A stretch of DNA of 64,000 nucleotides from a virus (taxonomy: Duplodnaviria; Heunggongvirae; Uroviricota; Caudoviricetes), in the IMG/VR virus record IMGVR_UViG_2579778660_000001; one strand, 5' to 3'. Both the position numbers and the translations under genes were made by a program. The notes below the pieces were generated by a model. That model was not told the origin of the DNA, did no database searches, and was given only the letters and a program-made list of their open reading frames with translations. Shown piece after piece: positions 7,013 through 59,548 of the stretch. The stretch's first letter is position 1; every line of letters begins with the position of its first letter.

Positions 7013-7065
7013 TCTCTGTTCTCACATAAATCACACTCTTTTTACACTCACAGCTTTCTCTATAG

Positions 7066-8463
7066 TTGGAGTGTATTTTGAACAAATCAGTTACTTCTGC
7101 GCTTTCCGAGGCCGCAGATATTAACAGCGTCATTGCTCTGGTTTCTTCATTAGAGAGGAAAGAAACACGCATGGGGCGAAGTAGCTACGTAGTCACCAGC
7201 AAAGGCGCAGAGGTAAAGACGGCTTTTAAGGTCGTTGATGCCAGCAGTCTAATCATTTCGAACAACCTTGACGGTACGATTAACCCGGCCTTCCCGGAAG
7301 AACTCCAACCACGAGATCGTACCCGGCTATCCAGCAAACTCCAGGTTAACCGTATTGCCTCCGATTTACGCCCGGCACAATTAACGGATTCCGGTATGAG
7401 CAGCCACGGAGCGCCGATAGTTGGTGCGGACAACGTTGTTGAATCCGGCAACGGAAGGAGTATGGGTATCTGGCGTGCCTATGAGCAAGGACAGGCGGAT
7501 GAGTATCGCCAGTACCTGATCGACCATGCGAAAGAGTTTGGTCTGAATCCTGACGAAATTTCGCAAATGTCTATGCCCGTACTGGTGCGAGAAAGACTCA
7601 CAGATGTAGACCGCGCTCAATTTGCCCGCGATTCAAACATTAGCGATCTGCAAGAGATGGCAGCAAGTGAAAAAGCGTATGCGGATGCGCAATTTCTCAC
7701 TGAGAGCGTCATGGCGCTATTTAATCCTTCAGATGATGGAAATCTGCTGGCGCGGTCCAATGATGCGTTTATTCGTGCGTTTTTGCGCGAAATTGGCGAT
7801 ACAGCGACGGCAGGCTTGCTTACTGCCGATGGGCGTCCCACGAAACAGCTTATCGATCGCATCCAGAATGCAATTTTTGCCAAAGCGTACAAGGATGAAA
7901 GGCTTGTTCGGCTGGTGTCGGAAGAGCCAGATCCGGAAATGCGTAATATCCTGACCGCATTAAATACGGCAGCCAGCGATTTTGCGCAAATGCAGTCGCT
8001 GTCTGGCGACGCTCACCATGACGCAGTAACAGGCTTAGTGGACGGTATAGAGCAGGTTAATGGCCTGGATACACAGGCGATAGCAGCACTCCAGGAAGCA
8101 ATCAATCTTGTACGTGAAGCCAAAGACAACGGTCAGGCCGTTGAAGAAGTGATCGCCCAAAGGGGGTTATTCGGTGACAGTACACCGGAAGCTGAGGCAT
8201 TGGCGCTATTCATCGTAGCAAATAATCGCAGTGCGAAGCGTATGGGGGCAGCATTCAAAAAAATGGCGCAAAAAATCAACGACGAGCTGACTCATAAACA
8301 ACAGGCATTGGGCGATATGTTCGGCGGTGGCGATGTTGATCTGCGTCGTATTTTGTCTGCTGTATCTGATGAAATTGAGGGTGAATTTGGCGAAGGGAAA
8401 GGTCTGAACTTTGCTATGTTTGAAAATTCTACAGTTCTAAATAATTGCCGTATGGGAAACTAA
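7066..8463 (+). CDS. hypothetical virion/morphogenesis-associated protein, 465 aa
   Basis: Long ORF with TTG start (uncertain) and no recognisable motif; lies between the Dar-like operon and the portal-like gene. Confidence 0.45.
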   Translation: MECILNKSVTSALSEAADINSVIALVSSLERKETRMGRSSYVVTSKGAEVKTAFKVVDASSLIISNNLDGTINPAFPEELQPRDRTRLSSKLQVNRIASDLRPAQLTDSGMSSHGAPIVGADNVVESGNGRSMGIWRAYEQGQADEYRQYLIDHAKEFGLNPDEISQMSMPVLVRERLTDVDRAQFARDSNISDLQEMAASEKAYADAQFLTESVMALFNPSDDGNLLARSNDAFIRAFLREIGDTATAGLLTADGRPTKQLIDRIQNAIFAKAYKDERLVRLVSEEPDPEMRNILTALNTAASDFAQMQSLSGDAHHDAVTGLVDGIEQVNGLDTQAIAALQEAINLVREAKDNGQAVEEVIAQRGLFGDSTPEAEALALFIVANNRSAKRMGAAFKKMAQKINDELTHKQQALGDMFGGGDVDLRRILSAVSDEIEGEFGEGKGLNFAMFENSTVLNNCRMGN

Positions 8464-53527: not shown

Positions 53528-53553
53528 AGGCCGCCATGTGCGGCCTTTTTTTG
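53528..53553 (+). terminator. intrinsic terminator / possible attenuator (aggccgc-catgt-gcggcct + T7) immediately 5' of an RBS
   Basis: Strong hairpin and T run 20 nt before the GGAGG RBS of the gene at 53580. Confidence 0.55.
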
Positions 53554-53579: not shown

Positions 53580-54233
53580 ATGGAAAAGATCGCAATATTC
53601 AGCCTGACCACCAGCAAGCCTCAAATGCTCACTGCAATACTGAAAGACGGTGCTCTCATTATTAACGAAGTAAAACCCCTTCCCGCGTCAGCATTGGAGC
53701 AAAAGCAAAAAATTCCTCCAGCTATAGCAGCCCTGCGGAAAAGCAAATTTAAGGTACTGGTAGACGAAATTACGCCAACGATCTCCGCTGGCACCGGAGC
53801 AAGCCAGGTGACTCTCAAGACCCGTCATGCCGATGGCAGAGCAGCAATCATCGTCGGGATGGAAAGATACAGAGAGTTAAAACTCCAGAAGCTATTATCC
53901 CTGCCGCAAAATAACAAAGGTGCTTTCGAAATCCCTGACTCCATCGTTGACACCGAATACAACGGTAACGGAGAAGAAGTCTACCGGGTGAACTGGCAGG
54001 ATATCAGGCCGGAGCATATTTTGATGATCCTGTGTTGCTACGCGACCGTATACCACAATGTAGCCAGTGCGGATTACGTAGAGCAGATGACCGGTACAGT
54101 CGAGAAAGAGCAAAAAACAGGCATACTCGCTTCGTTCCTGTCCATTATTGGGCATGAAAAAGTTAAAGCAGGCACCTCCCAGCCAAAGGCACTGACTGGG
54201 AAAGAAGTTGATGAAGATACCGTGATACTTTGA
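53580..54233 (+). CDS. hypothetical protein, 217 aa
   Basis: GGAGGAAGG RBS with ATG at 53580 (track start is further upstream). Confidence 0.5.
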   Translation: MEKIAIFSLTTSKPQMLTAILKDGALIINEVKPLPASALEQKQKIPPAIAALRKSKFKVLVDEITPTISAGTGASQVTLKTRHADGRAAIIVGMERYRELKLQKLLSLPQNNKGAFEIPDSIVDTEYNGNGEEVYRVNWQDIRPEHILMILCCYATVYHNVASADYVEQMTGTVEKEQKTGILASFLSIIGHEKVKAGTSQPKALTGKEVDEDTVIL

Positions 54234-54561: not shown

Positions 54562-54891
54562 ATGGGCTATAGCAGACTCGACGATAGGTACATTGAAGAC
54601 GATATTTTTCGTGCGCTGTTTCACCAGGAAATGATTAAGCGGGTATCGGAGTATCACTCTGATAATTTCCAGTACACGATAAAGATTGATGAAGTATATC
54701 GTTCAGACCTTGCAGCCTACAGGGCGTATGGCAATGCAGATTTGCGCTGGGTATTCCGGGTGCTGGTGGGCCATGAGTCAGAAATGGAAGAAATGCCCGC
54801 CGGGACCACGTTAACTCTTCCTGATGTGGCATGGCTGAGGAACAAGATCCGTGATTACGCGAGCGCGGAACCGGAGATAGAAAATGCCTGA
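54562..54891 (+). CDS. hypothetical protein, 109 aa
   Basis: Overlaps the downstream start (ATGCCTGA). Confidence 0.45.
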   Translation: MGYSRLDDRYIEDDIFRALFHQEMIKRVSEYHSDNFQYTIKIDEVYRSDLAAYRAYGNADLRWVFRVLVGHESEMEEMPAGTTLTLPDVAWLRNKIRDYASAEPEIENA

Positions 54892-56077
54892 TTTCCTGAA
54901 AAAACAGGACGGGCGCTATATCACTGACGGCCTGTCCTCTAAGGACTTCACGCGTTTATTCGAGATTATCAGGAAAGAACAAACCCGTAAGCGCCGACAA
55001 GCTCACCGGACGCTGACGCCAGGTAGACTGAGGAACAAATCCGCCGAAGATATTCTCAAGTTAGGGAAGAAAAAAGGCGGCACGTTCTTCACGCGAGACG
55101 ACCTGAAAGGTTTCGAAAAGCTACGGAGTAAAACGCGCGAAAAATATGACAGCAAGACGGCTGGCATCACATACGCCCAGCTGGTGGCATCCAGCCAGGC
55201 AATCGATATTAAGCGTGCAAATAACGCCGTGGATGACGGATCTGGTATCAAAAGAGCTACCCCCGTATCTCTTCGCCACAATGTGATTAATATCCGCGTA
55301 GAAGCATCGGATATATCCGTCCACCAGCACCATATCGTCCGGATACGCTTTGAAGAATGGGATCAGATGGTTGATGACATCGCAGAAGACGATAAATCAG
55401 CTCTCAAAATCACTAAATCACTGTGCGCCGGGCGAGTGTCTTTCGATTGTGACTGTGGTCGTCATCAATACTGGTATCGTTACATCGCCACTGCGGGTAA
55501 CTTTGCCCTGGCACCGCCAAAAGAATACGCCTATCCAAAAGTTCGCAACCCGAACCTGCAAGGCGTCGCCTGTAAACACGTGATCCACTCAATGACGCGG
55601 TTACAGTCCGCCAGTTGGCAAATGAGTATTGCTCGTGCGCTACAAAAGGCTGCAACGCAAATTGCATTTGGTGACGATCGCCGCCGTACAACCAAACACT
55701 TCTCAAAAGAAGACGAGAAGGAGTTTAATCGCAATCGTAGCAGTAAAACGAACGTTGAAGCCGCCAAACGCGAATGGAGACTCTATCAGAAGCGCCAGGC
55801 AGCTTTAAGTTCAAAACTGGCAAAGGACAACGGCAAGATCGACAAGCTACGTGACCAATTGACCAGGGCCAGAAAGTTGTCAGACGCACAGAAAAAACGG
55901 GCGGCTGCAAAAGAAGCGGCCTTGCAACGAGAGAAGCAGAAAAACAAGGAGCTTCAGCAACGCCTTGCCGATCAGTTCGCACTGAAGAAGCAGGCGTTCA
56001 TTGATGCGCTTGTCATGGCAGGAACGTCACCTGAGCAAGCTGAAAAAATGTTTATAGAGTACGTGAAAAAAGCATAA
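54884..56077 (+). CDS. SWIM-type zinc-finger protein with basic coiled-coil C-terminus, 397 aa
   Basis: CDCGRHQYWYRY...ACKHV matches the SWIM CxC-x(n)-CxH pattern. Confidence 0.45.
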   Translation: MPDFLKKQDGRYITDGLSSKDFTRLFEIIRKEQTRKRRQAHRTLTPGRLRNKSAEDILKLGKKKGGTFFTRDDLKGFEKLRSKTREKYDSKTAGITYAQLVASSQAIDIKRANNAVDDGSGIKRATPVSLRHNVINIRVEASDISVHQHHIVRIRFEEWDQMVDDIAEDDKSALKITKSLCAGRVSFDCDCGRHQYWYRYIATAGNFALAPPKEYAYPKVRNPNLQGVACKHVIHSMTRLQSASWQMSIARALQKAATQIAFGDDRRRTTKHFSKEDEKEFNRNRSSKTNVEAAKREWRLYQKRQAALSSKLAKDNGKIDKLRDQLTRARKLSDAQKKRAAAKEAALQREKQKNKELQQRLADQFALKKQAFIDALVMAGTSPEQAEKMFIEYVKKA

Positions 56078-56110
56078 ACCACACATAGCCTAGTAGTTTA
56101 TGCTGGGCTT

Positions 56111-56839
56111 TCATTTTTTTGAAAGATCAATTCCAGTATTATCAAATAAACTGGAAATATCAGACACCAATTTATTAAAATGCTTGTCATCATTATAGAA
56201 TGATGTGCTTTTTATAGCGACTATAAAATCACATAAATCTTGCGGAGATTCAATGCTAACACCCTTATTTTTATATAGTTCAATAATACTGCCAACATCA
56301 GTATGCAATAGTTTTATCGCACCACAAATTTCTCGCTGTTTCGTAGCTAGGTCATTAAGTTTATTTTCATTTTCATCTAATATTTGTTTTGAATATTTAG
56401 CGTCATTGGTTGCTTGATTTAACTTTGTTTTCTTTCTTTGCAATTCTATTCTTTTATCATAATCAGCAACTTCATCTAAATATCTTATTTCAGTGTATAA
56501 TTTACTTGTTAGCTTAGATATCGTCAGTGTGAGAATAGGAGCTAATACAGATGCAAATACTCCATAAATAAATGGGATTACAACGTGACAAACCCACGGG
56601 GGTACAATCCAATTATCAAAGAACGGTACATTACCACCAACAAAAACAATAGATAATGTATATAGGATGTCGTCCTTTGACTTTAATATAATTAAAATAT
56701 CCTTCCAGTTAAGGATTAGAAAAGAAATGACAACATATGCAAAAACCTTGTTAAATATTTTATCTTTTATTATTTCAGAAAATGATTTTAGTTCTGTTTC
56801 ATTTATAGACGGATTATCTTTAACTTTTTCTGACATCAT
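56111..56839 (-). CDS. AT-rich membrane protein, candidate abortive-infection / defence effector, 242 aa
   Basis: AGGA RBS; 3-4 predicted transmembrane helices then a coiled-coil cytoplasmic domain; the gene is markedly AT-rich compared with its flanks. Confidence 0.5.
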   Translation of the reverse strand: MMSEKVKDNPSINETELKSFSEIIKDKIFNKVFAYVVISFLILNWKDILIILKSKDDILYTLSIVFVGGNVPFFDNWIVPPWVCHVVIPFIYGVFASVLAPILTLTISKLTSKLYTEIRYLDEVADYDKRIELQRKKTKLNQATNDAKYSKQILDENENKLNDLATKQREICGAIKLLHTDVGSIIELYKNKGVSIESPQDLCDFIVAIKSTSFYNDDKHFNKLVSDISSLFDNTGIDLSKK

Positions 56840-56860
56840 AGCTTATCCTGATTACTTTTA

Positions 56861-57061
56861 TTATGGATAGTTAAAAGATTCAACAGGTGATGGTGGCTGA
56901 ATTGGGTAATGTTTCTTCTCGTACTCCTCAATGAGAAGACTCATAACCTCAAAGAAATCACCTTCCGGAGTATTCATTTCCGGTTCGTTATCGAACATCG
57001 GTTCGACCGCACGCAGTGCGGCCTCATAATCTTGTTCTGTACGGATAGGTTTAATGTTCAT
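56861..57061 (-). CDS. small protein resembling the N-terminal domain of long HigA-type antitoxins, 66 aa
   Basis: Pattern I.TEQDYEAAL..VE...D.EP.....GD.FEVMSLLIEEYE, as in the E. coli YgjM/HigA N-domain (recalled); no clear RBS. Confidence 0.3.
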   Translation of the reverse strand: MNIKPIRTEQDYEAALRAVEPMFDNEPEMNTPEGDFFEVMSLLIEEYEKKHYPIQPPSPVESFNYP

Positions 57062-57074
57062 TAATTACAAAGGA

Positions 57075-57100
57075 AAGCCCACTTGCTAAGTGGGCTTTTT
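57075..57100. terminator. bidirectional terminator hairpin (agcccact-tgcta-agtgggct)
   Basis: 8-bp stem flanked by an A run and a T run. Confidence 0.6.
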
Positions 57101-57117
57101 GTATGTGTTTTACTATA

Positions 57118-57456
57118 TCAGGCTGCTTTTTTATTCATGTTCCGCTGAGAAATAAATTTTTCAGCAGTATTGATACGACTTAACTCTTCCTGAACGCGCA
57201 TATCATTTTCGACTTCCCACAGATCTACTGCGGTCTGAAGATTAATCCAAAAATCTACAGAAGTATCGAATGCTTTTGCCAGGCGATATGCCATATCCAT
57301 CGTTAGCTTACGATTATTATTAACAAGAGCACTTACGGTGTTACGATGAACATGAAGTATTTCTGCTAACTCGTTGATCTTCAGCTCTAACGGCTCCAGG
57401 TATTCGTACAGCAGGATATCACCTACGGTCGTCGGTTTTCTGGTTGCCTGTTTCAT
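57118..57456 (-). CDS. higA: HigA-family antitoxin (XRE helix-turn-helix), 112 aa
   Basis: GDILLYEYLEPLELKINELAEILHVHRNTVSALVNNNRKLTMDMAYRLAKAF...FWINLQ is the canonical HigA HTH pattern. Confidence 0.8.
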   Translation of the reverse strand: MKQATRKPTTVGDILLYEYLEPLELKINELAEILHVHRNTVSALVNNNRKLTMDMAYRLAKAFDTSVDFWINLQTAVDLWEVENDMRVQEELSRINTAEKFISQRNMNKKAA

Positions 57457-57527
57457 TTTTTTGCCCTTACTAGCGTGCGTATTAAGTGGACTCTGGTCAG
57501 AACCCGGTCCGTAACCGGGTATCTGTT

Positions 57528-57830
57528 TTAGTATTTGTGAGGGTCGAGATACAAGTCCTCGGCCTTTCCGTTAACCCACTTAAAAATTAACCTATATTGC
57601 TTATTCACCCTTACTGATGAATAGCCATTTAGCTTCCCTGACAGTTCCTCATACCGATTACCTGGTGGTGATCTTAAATCCTTACAGGTAGTTGCGGCAT
57701 TGATAATGTCCAACTTCCGTGACAATGTCATATGAATATCAGGAGGTATCTTTCTATGTGGTGTTGAAAATTCAAAAAAATCATCAAGCCACGCATCCCT
57801 GAAATCCTTTATGTTAATTTTTTTGGTCAT
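57528..57830 (-). CDS. higB: HigB-family toxin (RelE/ParE-fold mRNA interferase), 100 aa
   Basis: C-terminal YRLIFKWVNGKAEDLYLDPHKY killer-protein motif; toxin-first hig gene order. Confidence 0.75.
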   Translation of the reverse strand: MTKKINIKDFRDAWLDDFFEFSTPHRKIPPDIHMTLSRKLDIINAATTCKDLRSPPGNRYEELSGKLNGYSSVRVNKQYRLIFKWVNGKAEDLYLDPHKY

Positions 57831-57980
57831 TAGTCATTTGATCCTCCGTGATGATTACCGAATGCCATAACTATAGCGCACCGTTGCACTGTGCGCAAGT
57901 GCATTTTATGAATTCCCCCTCCTTCATCCAAAATCACAATCTCCCGAAAATCTTCCTTTCGATACCTGACAGATCGACCT

Positions 57981-58784
57981 TTGAGGATGCTTATGGGCCG
58001 TTTTGACGAATGGTTTGCTGACGATGCAAACCTGGCAAGTAAGGAGTCAGAACATGACAGCACGCAGAGAGAAACGCCAGCGCCGATTGAAGCGAATGCA
58101 GGAGGCGCGCCGGAACATGGCAATACCGGTTCGGATTCATTCAGCATTCTGGAAGAGCAACCCGCCGCCAAAGCTGATAGCCATGATAATTTTGCTGATA
58201 GCAACGGTGGCCTTACTCCGGATGCTGGCGAATCAGATATAGCCATACTTCCACCTTCCCTGGCTGGCAGAGAACCAACTCCACAGCTAAAAGCACGCTA
58301 TAACGGGCATAAAGCCTTTAACGACCAAATCCGCGCAGACTGGATGCTGATTATTGAATCCAGCCCAGACGCGTTTCAGGCTCTCTTATATCGACCAGAT
58401 GTTGGCACATATGGGGTAGTCAGCGACGAAACAGGAGAAGAGTCATTCACTGAACTGGATAACAACCAACGCGAACTGACTTACCAGGAACCTGAAATCG
58501 TTTATGTGCTGGATAACCCTGACGGACGTGACTCTTTCCATGCGATTGACGCAGACGGTGAGCAGGATGGCTTAACCGATGATGTTCTGATTCTGCGTAT
58601 TGCAGCAAATAACGTCCCCGTCGGCTCAATTCTTGAATGGAATGAAGAGATGGTAAACGGCGTAGCCCGCCGCTGGTGGTACGTGCACCGTATTTTTAGC
58701 TACGGCACACAGCATGTTGGTTCGCTTTACTACTGCATACCTGCCAGGAATTTTGATACGACTCAAAACGGAGTGATCGAATGA
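57981..58784 (+). CDS. hypothetical acidic structural protein, 267 aa
   Basis: First gene of a four-gene operon that ends with a baseplate-spike-like protein. Confidence 0.45.
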   Translation: MRMLMGRFDEWFADDANLASKESEHDSTQRETPAPIEANAGGAPEHGNTGSDSFSILEEQPAAKADSHDNFADSNGGLTPDAGESDIAILPPSLAGREPTPQLKARYNGHKAFNDQIRADWMLIIESSPDAFQALLYRPDVGTYGVVSDETGEESFTELDNNQRELTYQEPEIVYVLDNPDGRDSFHAIDADGEQDGLTDDVLILRIAANNVPVGSILEWNEEMVNGVARRWWYVHRIFSYGTQHVGSLYYCIPARNFDTTQNGVIE

Positions 58785-59548
58785 CTTCAAATAAAACCCT
58801 CCTGGCGCGAACAGGTGAATGGCAAACCTCACGCACAGGAAAATTCCAGACCACGGGCTTTGAAAACGTGGATAACGCGTTTGCGACGCTAATCAGCAAC
58901 ATTTTTTCTGATATCTTACTGGTGGCCCCCGCGCCGGAAGAAAAACGCTTTGCGTCATTCCTGAATCGTCCACCAGCAGAGCGTGTCTATGTGGCCCGTT
59001 TCGACAATGCGATCGAGTTTCTTAAAGCAGTTCGTCGCGCAAATGCCGGGCAAGGGAGAAAACCTGAAAACCAGAACATTAACCGGGATGCTCTCCCCCT
59101 GGTCAATATCTCACGCACTATGGATATCAATTATATCAACGATGATCAGCAGATTGACCGCAAAAAAGTAGCCAGTTTTTGCGAACCAGATACCGGAATG
59201 CCTTTAGCAGAACTGGAATACACCCAGGCCATTCTGACGTATGACGTTACGTTAATGGCAACTGATAAAGCGACCATGAGTCTGATGTGTAATTCGCTGG
59301 GCGCACGGCTTCGCCTGATGACAGGTACACAATTTGAAGCAACCACTCACCTTGTTCGTGTCCCGGTCCCGCTGATTTGCTCGATACAGGATGCCAAAGA
59401 AGTCGGCTTTACGGATGTTTCAGCACCAATTGGAGAAGAGCGTATTTATGCCACACAAGCGCCGATAAGTGTGATTGCAGACGTGATCACAGCATGGGAG
59501 TTGGACGCAAAACGTATTATTACCGAAACCTCGATATCTATGGGGTGA
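58781..59548 (+). CDS. putative baseplate/tail component, 255 aa
   Basis: ATGA overlap; operon context. Confidence 0.4.
   Translation: MTSNKTLLARTGEWQTSRTGKFQTTGFENVDNAFATLISNIFSDILLVAPAPEEKRFASFLNRPPAERVYVARFDNAIEFLKAVRRANAGQGRKPENQNINRDALPLVNISRTMDINYINDDQQIDRKKVASFCEPDTGMPLAELEYTQAILTYDVTLMATDKATMSLMCNSLGARLRLMTGTQFEATTHLVRVPVPLICSIQDAKEVGFTDVSAPIGEERIYATQAPISVIADVITAWELDAKRIITETSISMG

Follow-up and report, generated by a model that had tools for sequence, protein, structure and literature searches.

A SWIM-type core in the P1 gene 25 'tail stability' family, and a proposed role for its product in phage tail assembly

The subject of this work is a single gene, at positions 54884-56077 of the virus record IMGVR_UViG_2579778660_000001 (Caudoviricetes). 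The whole stretch of this DNA that we analysed, 64,000 nucleotides, is referred to below as the window. At the DNA level the window region shares 97.7% identity with Escherichia phage D6, a plasmid prophage related to P1, and the window is a D6-like phage of the P1 family. The open reading frame (ORF) is D6 orf74, annotated as 'tail protein, similar to P1 gene 25', and the gene itself is already known as an annotated tail protein. The initial annotation of this DNA had described a free-standing SWIM zinc-finger protein of unknown role. We find instead an ortholog of P1 gene 25, an essential 'tail stability' gene defined by amber mutants, placed within a conserved operon of tail and connector genes.

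The matches that tie the protein to this family are strong. The gp25 proteins of P1, P7, SJ46 and RCS47 share 56% amino acid identity with it over residues 1-334 (tblastn), and phrog_1722 matches residues 2-396 with an E-value of 5.1e-195. These results show the ORF to be the P1 gene 25 ortholog in the D6 lineage; the P1 gene is a late, essential one in virion morphogenesis. A family search of a database clustered at 90% identity found 278 proteins at E <= 0.001, and among the matches listed most are named 'phage tail protein' and come from Enterobacterales. The exhaustive search, at 50% identity, gave 442 clusters. No meaningful match to the window protein was found in NCBIfam or PADLOC, and neither single-sequence nor family-profile searches of the PDB found a relative of gp25. 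Two PDB matches to the window protein were set aside: a pectin lyase (E=0.2), which we judged spurious, and a designed helical protein (E=0.016), which covers the tail only.

Gene 25 is a member of an operon with the order mat-26-25-7-24-6-5 (Table 1), interrupted in the window by a minus-strand island between genes 25 and 7. The gene starts with ATG and, as initially annotated, overlaps an upstream gene of 109 residues, which is gene 26; the overlap is 8 nucleotides (ATGCCTGA), and a GGAG stands at 54873-54876, 7 nucleotides 5' of the start codon. We assessed the diversity of such loci using contigs that encode homologs, together with tblastn of annotated phages; a related-locus search with distant alignments mostly returned near-identical P1/D6-like or ABMM1-like loci. 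Among all the loci fetched, phmmer identified more than 70 with the order (mat)-26-25-7-24-6-5 and about 80 of the Acinetobacter ABMM1 type, with terL-phrog4545-26-25-phrog4597-phrog5187-capsid. In ABMM1 itself (locus L003, 2746-8479) a 512-residue phrog_4545 protein is encoded 5' of 26-25 and a capsid-like phrog_1014 protein 3'. A distant locus is L167, a metagenome-assembled contig whose gp25 homolog is ~34% identical. Its PHROG assignments read terS-terL-mat(1837)-26(1269)-25-7(1906/21442)-24(1767)-6(1390)-5(430), with mat (7020-7697) right after terS-terL and directly upstream of 26-25, and it has no island between genes 25 and 7. In a further locus, L171, genes 25, 7 and 24 are contiguous. 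Genes 26 and 25 stand side by side in each of the three long-form lineages with both genes, and their junction is tight throughout, with the overlap described above here and gaps of 1-4 nucleotides in ABMM1 and L167. The phrog_4597 gene that lies 3' of the gp25 gene in ABMM1 and in Xanthomonas phage Rb1 was considered as a diverged gp7 stopper and rejected; hhalign shows no relation.

Table 1. Genes, protein features and related loci discussed in the text, with positions in the window where these apply
Feature	Position	Strand	Basis or remark
mat ortholog ('maturation control')	53580..54233	+	D6 orf78 'similar to P1 gene mat'; phrog_1837 E=1.9e-94
Gene 26 ortholog (109 residues; baseplate 'plug', T4 gp53-like)	54562..54891	+	phrog_1269 E=2.3e-36; PDB 9ay5_S/9vzk 'Gp26' E=1e-16
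Gene 25 ortholog (D6 orf74 / P1 gp25 'tail stability' family)	54884..56077	+	ATG-started ORF; phrog_1722; D6/P1 identity
Basic N-terminal helical segment, GRYxTxGL...F...F motif (residues 1-59)	54884..55060	+	G10, L17, F22, F26 and R37 invariant in the alignment of 21 close relatives; AlphaFold2 helices 19-39 and 46-59
Conserved globular core (residues 60-295): helices, three-stranded sheet at residues 124-156, then SWIM-type module	55061..55768	+	
SWIM-type zinc-finger region (residues 185-240)	55436..55603	+	Putative ligands C189/C191 (nt 55448-55456) and C230/H232 (nt 55571-55579)
Insert tip PPKEYAYPKVRNPNLQG (residues 211-227) in the 38-residue CxC-CxH spacer	55514..55564	+	Family-specific; E214, P218, N222 and G227 invariant in 102 relatives
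88-residue basic amphipathic helix (residues 291-378), putative coiled-coil oligomerisation stalk	55754..56017	+	AlphaFold2
Short conserved C-terminal helix (residues 383-396), preceding turn G-T-S-P, motif FIDAL..G....QAEK.F	56030..56071	+	F372, G380 and A386 conserved in the alignment of 21 close relatives
Terminator-like hairpin and T-run, between convergent gene 25 and orf73	56087..56119 (hairpin 56087-56109)	+	Consensus scan: 9-bp stem, loop of 5, TTCATTTTTT
Gene 7 (connector stopper)	57993-58784	+	PDB 9ums_B 'Gp7' E=7.5e-43
Gene 24 (tail terminator)	58781-59548	+	PDB 8jan_y 'Gp24' E=1.6e-14
Short homologs (loci)			L165 HSE3, L173 LIS04, L174 SP-15, L166 GXN1, L176 phiLo, L175 Molly, L178 Motura

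The product of gene 25 is a strongly basic protein of 397 residues and 45.6 kDa, with a pI of 10.06 and a net charge of +35. We modelled it with AlphaFold2 from an alignment of 21 sequences (predicted local distance difference test score, pLDDT, 82; predicted template modelling score, pTM, 0.72), and its core is confidently folded. Residues 1-90 carry a net charge of +13 and the long helix +13, and the core is only mildly basic at +4. The long basic coiled-coil tail claimed initially is borne out by this model, in which residues 291-378 form one continuous helix; hydrophobic residues fill 65% of its a and d positions in the best heptad register, compared with 41% overall. The short C-terminal helix that follows is possibly a docking or oligomerisation motif, and endings of the same kind (G-x-S/T...A...F) are found in Rb1, ABMM1 and P0162. 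Weak matches to SHOCT and SHOCT_2 (PF09851 and PF20612) occur in 3 and 2 of 102 relatives respectively (best E 1.3e-4), with no such match at the C-terminus of the window protein.

The protein has just four cysteines, at positions 181, 189, 191 and 230. Three of these, together with His232, form the CxC-x(n)-CxH motif that was reported initially, within the string CDCGRHQYWYRY...ACKHV; the exact arrangement is C189-D-C191-(38 residues)-C230-K-H232. This pattern is rare. Searching for C.C.{6,45}C.H in the 249 six-frame ORFs of at least 60 residues in the window returns this protein alone, and of 100,000 shuffled versions of the protein's own sequence 8 contain the pattern. Furthermore, C189, C191, C230, K231 and H232 are invariant both in the 21 close relatives and in an alignment of 102 relatives that extends down to ~26-30% identity, and G94, E214, P218, N222 and G227 are likewise invariant in the larger alignment. 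In the AlphaFold2 model a strand ends at the CxC and a helix begins at the CKH.

Is this a SWIM-type zinc finger? The initial annotation had named failure to align with SWIM profiles as the result that would speak against its assignment, and for the window sequence itself Pfam is indeed blank: no SWIM match was found for the whole protein (E<=1) or for its core (E<=10), and the gathering threshold of PF04434, 19.6 bits, is not reached. We therefore do not file the window protein as a profile-level Pfam SWIM member. The evidence from the wider family nevertheless favours a SWIM-type module. When the 102 relatives are scanned individually, PF04434 is matched weakly in 26 (best E 0.0024), and the next family in 4. 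A natural homolog of 181 residues, gp067 of Bacillus phage HSE3, can be aligned through the whole insert to positions 12-31 of the SWIM profile, with a score of 14.2 bits, again below the cut-off of 19.6. An artificial version of the window sequence with the loop deleted, made solely to see if both halves fit the SWIM profile, also scores below threshold, at 13.3 bits. The best matches in BFVD are small phage proteins, two of which carry the UniProt name 'SWIM-type domain-containing protein', and the Foldseek E-values for the short phage SWIM-type proteins range from 3e-4 to 2e-5.

The short homologs, proteins of 130-190 residues in phages HSE3, SP-15, LIS04, phiLo, Molly and Motura, help to define the conserved unit. 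They share the signature C-[ST]-C-P-D-[FW] and a loop of the form [KR]-I-[TR]-N-P...G-x-x-C-K-H, in which the N-P is invariant even there. Because the ligands are invariant, PF04434 matches recur, HSE3 gp067 aligns across the insert, the short homologs keep the same signature and BFVD names point the same way, we regard the protein as a SWIM-type variant with a conserved 38-residue insert. This module is the most strongly conserved part of the core, and its SWIM-type fold, with a family-specific loop, is well supported. Zinc would be bound through C189, C191, C230 and H232, and the tip of the insert, from E214 to G227, is a candidate binding surface. The SWIM identity claimed initially thus survives for the family, by its weak PF04434 matches, invariant ligands and short homologs, and does not survive as a Pfam match of the window protein. 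The reading that would undo it, in which the Cys/His pattern is no metal site and structural cysteines or chance produce a coincidental resemblance, can point to the missing curated profile match and to a spacer outside the classical range. We consider it very unlikely, as three of the four cysteines and His232 are invariant in 102 relatives and kept in homologs of 130 residues, the shuffles produce the pattern so seldom, and a CSCPDF signature is found in the short homologs.

This combination of a SWIM motif and an NP loop, C[ST]CPDF...[KR]I[TR]NP...G..CKH, is a repeated find among large and jumbo phages, with examples from those of Firmicutes, Thermus, Bacteroidota and Betaproteobacteria, and its gene usually belongs to a neck or baseplate module. 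In the Thornevirus-like phages SP-15, LIS04 and HSE3 it is part of the neck module, where the genes run protease, capsid, X, gp13-like neck/Ad2 adaptor, X, SWIM, X, Neck1/tail completion, sheath stabiliser, sheath and tube. The homolog of Streptococcus phage GXN1 is flanked by neck and sheath genes, and in Thermus phage phiLo it adjoins a baseplate wedge gene. The neighbours HSE3 gp066, gp068 and gp069 show no relation to gp7, gp24 or phrog_4597 by hhalign.

What is known of gp25 comes mostly from P1. There the label 'tail stability' is attached to genes 7 and 25 and the label 'baseplate or tail stability' to gene 24, and amber mutants exist (PMC10695390). Knock-down of gene 25 or 26 by CRISPR interference (CRISPRi) reduces the efficiency of plating (EOP) to ~0.1, a ~10-fold effect, whereas genes 7, 24, 6 and 5 give values of 8e-3 to <1e-5, or 10^2 to >10^5-fold (PMC10695390, Table 2); the authors list 25 and 26 among the known essential genes missed by their screen (PMC10695390). 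The pattern hints that 26-25 are separately transcribed, or that their products are needed in small amounts. By cryo-electron microscopy gp7 is the stopper and gp24 the tail terminator (PMC12810830, PMC10304247), and gp26 has been solved as the baseplate plug. In contrast, gp25 is never mentioned in the paper on the near-complete P1 virion structure, nor in two tail and baseplate studies, one of them a preprint on the tail-baseplate. The protein is absent from the ordered P1 virion models. It was nevertheless detected by mass spectrometry in virions purified on caesium chloride (CsCl), with two peptides and 8.4% coverage, which passes a two-peptide threshold. HHpred results for P1 gp25 were given in 2022 as 'None >50%', and the authors suggested a structural protein or an assembly cofactor.

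We propose that gp25 is a basic, coiled-coil, zinc-stabilised factor for the assembly or completion of tails, present in virions in traces at most; we hold this with about as much doubt as confidence. In this proposal gp25 would oligomerise through its long helix (residues 291-378), and the zinc-stabilised SWIM module with its loop surface would bind a tail or connector part encoded in the same ancient operon. The candidate partners are gp26, the translationally coupled baseplate plug, and gp7 or gp24. The first is suggested because of the coupling, and the other two because of the shared 'tail stability' label and because the synteny reaches as far as the Thornevirus-like neck modules in phages of Firmicutes. 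Binding to the partner would make tails stable and competent for joining. The factor would act sub-stoichiometrically, in a manner resembling a chaperone, and would be largely absent from the ordered finished particle.

Three observations suggest that genes 26 and 25 may form a transcription unit of their own, apart from 7-24-6-5. The effect of CRISPRi on 26 and 25 in P1 is weak compared with the strong effect on 7-24-6-5, a terminator-like hairpin stands right after the gene 25 stop codon, and an insertion precisely at the junction of genes 25 and 7, the minus-strand island, is tolerated in the D6 lineage. If the two genes do form such a unit, gp26 would therefore be favoured as the closest functional partner.

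A number of points weigh against an assembly factor of this kind. For gene 25 the term 'tail stability' serves as a label alone. The two peptides found in virions mean that gp25 may be a true, flexible structural component, and its strong positive charge would equally suit the binding of nucleic acid. The genomic context also varies: phrog_4597 and a capsid gene, not genes 7 and 24, come after the gene 25 homolog in ABMM1 and Rb1, and Rb1 has no gene 26-like ORF beside that homolog. Finally, the short homologs in Maribacter phage Molly and Achromobacter phage Motura lie among genes for DNA ligase, queuosine/DpdA-type enzymes, SSB and RecA.

The main rival to an assembly factor is a low-copy component of the virion that is flexible or mismatched in symmetry, either an appendage of the neck or a protein in the lumen of the tail tube or neck alongside the tape measure. 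Such a component would go unseen in symmetrised maps. The number of gp25 peptides in purified P1 virions equals that of gp7, a hexameric stopper, and the tape measure Sit, the fibres and the C-terminus of DarA are likewise not resolved. An earlier map shows 'broken' density at the neck, and a long helix with basic charge would suit an extended element of a lumen or fibre. However, the connector (3.5 Å) and baseplate (3.2 Å) maps, which are said to 'identify almost all proteins', hold no unassigned density credited to gp25. Its peptide coverage is the lowest in the P1 virion table, and a protein with a charge of +35 could co-purify non-specifically. On balance a structural component is a real possibility, albeit one that we think is rather unlikely.

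Could gp25 act primarily on DNA? It might bind the ends of packaged or injected DNA or retain the genome, in function like T4 gp2 or Mu gpN, with the SWIM module and the basic arms on the DNA and the coiled coil pairing the ends. The pI, the net charge and the low-copy association with virions all fit, as do the DNA-modification, ligase, SSB and RecA genes around the short homologs of Motura and Molly. T4 gp2 and gp4 are encoded next to gene 53 and gene 3, and terminase genes lie directly upstream in L167, L035 and ABMM1. SWIM domains were reportedly proposed by Makarova and colleagues in 2002 to bind DNA or protein. However, the genetic label concerns tails rather than DNA, the charge of the core is just +4, and other than SWIM there is no recognised DNA-binding fold. 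T4 gp2 and gp4 were also tried as homologs of gp25 and rejected, with an hhalign probability of 0.1% for each. We consider a primary role on DNA improbable.

A specific form of DNA-end binding deserves mention for its consequences, even though we think it a little less probable again. Here gp25 would be a 'pilot' for P1 DNA, a basic zinc-finger coiled-coil dimer that leaves the particle together with the DNA, caps or pairs its ends and shields them from RecBCD. The symmetrised maps would miss it because it is carried in the lumen of the neck or tail, and its function would correspond to that of T4 gp2 and of Mu gpN. Ikeda and Tomizawa in 1965 and Sandri and Berger in 1980 are said to have described a protein that keeps P1 DNA circular after abortive transduction, in a form sensitive to protease. 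In this reading gp25 would be a candidate for that protein, and if gp25 truly is injected and acts on DNA ends, this would have implications for the mechanism of generalized transduction.

The remaining alternatives concern regulation and remodelling. The homolog in Rb1 (locus L002, 6800-7879) bears the GenBank product name 'transcriptional regulator MvaT' (PQ569993), which together with a basic, Lys/Ala-rich tail would make the family regulators of transcription or nucleoid-associated proteins. This is highly improbable: Pfam finds no MvaT/H-NS or any other family in the Rb1 homolog at E<=10 and none in the window protein, the long-form members always lie inside late morphogenesis modules, and gp25 is detected in virions. 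The name is probably an artefact of the Lys/Ala-rich tail. Least credible of all is an accessory of a SNF2 or DarB-type helicase, or a SWIM derived from a transposase, an idea raised by the initial annotation and by the frequent company of classical SWIM domains with SNF2 ATPases and MuDR-type transposases (PMC5512222), since no such gene is adjacent in ~170 loci, where the neighbours are mat, 26, 7, 24, 6 and 5 or terminase and capsid genes, and since nearly all of the 442 clusters are stand-alone proteins of ~330-450 residues.

Several side observations concern the surroundings of the operon. The island between genes 25 and 7 occupies 56111-57830 on the minus strand and is low in GC (36.7% in 56001-58000). 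It contains orf73, a 66-residue remnant ORF, an HTH_3 antitoxin-like gene and a HigB toxin gene (E=4e-35), and looks like a moron, defence or addiction cassette at an operon boundary. The product of orf73 (242 residues) has no match in Pfam or PADLOC, and the 66-residue ORF (56861-57061) resembles the N-terminus of PD-Lambda-2_B (E=2.5e-16). A comparison of window positions 56770-56880 with D6 (locus L001, 11371-11681) shows that ~200 bp of D6 are missing from the window; therefore D6 orf72, a 'HigA family antitoxin' of 120 residues, is cut to the 66-residue ORF. The left block, including orf73, is ~92% identical to D6 and the right block ~98%.

The gene described initially as terminator-gated, at 53580, is mat, and a strong terminator-like hairpin on the plus strand (53528-53546; 7-bp stem with 6 GC pairs, then TTTTTTT) does lie ~30 nucleotides 5' of its start. 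In P1 itself mat is relocated elsewhere in the genome. The mat product has no Pfam family and is absent from the proteins identified in the P1 virion-structure papers that we searched.

We believe that these results matter for several reasons. P1 is a classic transducing phage whose virion has been modelled almost completely, and gp25 is an essential product of mat-26-25-7-24-6-5 that has no location in that model. The SWIM-type core provides testable ligands in C189, C191, C230 and H232, and the conserved insert provides a candidate surface to go with them. Furthermore, the presence of the SWIM-plus-loop module in large myoviruses of Proteobacteria, Firmicutes, Bacteroidota and Thermus suggests a widespread, so far unrecognised module for morphogenesis or DNA handling. 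Should gp25 prove to be an assembly factor and no more, the gain is an incremental annotation. Our searches for literature on SWIM domains in phage structural proteins or in P1 found nothing relevant. It appears to be new to the literature searched that the core is of SWIM type, that it has a conserved insert, that the module is so broadly spread in large myoviruses and that gp25 is the unlocated product of its operon.

Finally, the window protein can be compared with the known systems that it resembles. Its nearest relatives, P1 gp25 and D6 orf74, agree with it in length class, in operon place after gene 26 and in the invariant Cys/His motif. P1 gp25 differs in the sequence of the C-terminal coiled coil, and the tblastn match ends at residue 334. 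At the level of the genome the D6 type differs from P1 in the spacing of genes 25 and 7, with the minus-strand island of orf73 and the HigB/HTH genes between them. Further away, short phage SWIM-type proteins such as those of Motura (QDH83440 / A0A514CSJ7) and BcepSauron (A0A482MLT0), HSE3 gp067, SP-15 gp038 and phiLo_129 share the SWIM-plus-NP-loop core, but at 130-190 residues they have neither the basic N-terminal arm of gp25 nor its long coiled coil.

Classical SWIM domains (PF04434 / PROSITE, e.g. ZSWIM8, PDB 9rwz_M) share with gp25 the order CxC...CxH and the G-x-x-CKH-[IVL] sequence, and possibly also the predicted strand leading to the CxC and the predicted helix starting from C-K-H. 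Their spacer is shorter, reportedly 6-25 residues according to Makarova and colleagues in 2002, and the 38 residues found here include an invariant E...PK[IV][RK]NP...G loop. The window protein also differs in its setting, as it is encoded in a tail operon and has none of the SNF2, kinase, transposase or cullin-receptor architectures. The likeness to T4 gp2 (DNA end protector), T4 gp4 (head closure) and Mu gpN (DNA circularisation protein) is one of functional analogy only. These proteins are basic, low in copy number and linked to morphogenesis, and like gp25 they are encoded beside genes for the baseplate wedge, tail completion or the connector, as in the T4 order 3-2-4-53-5; T4 gp2 differs from gp25 in having no Cys motif and no similarity of sequence or profile.

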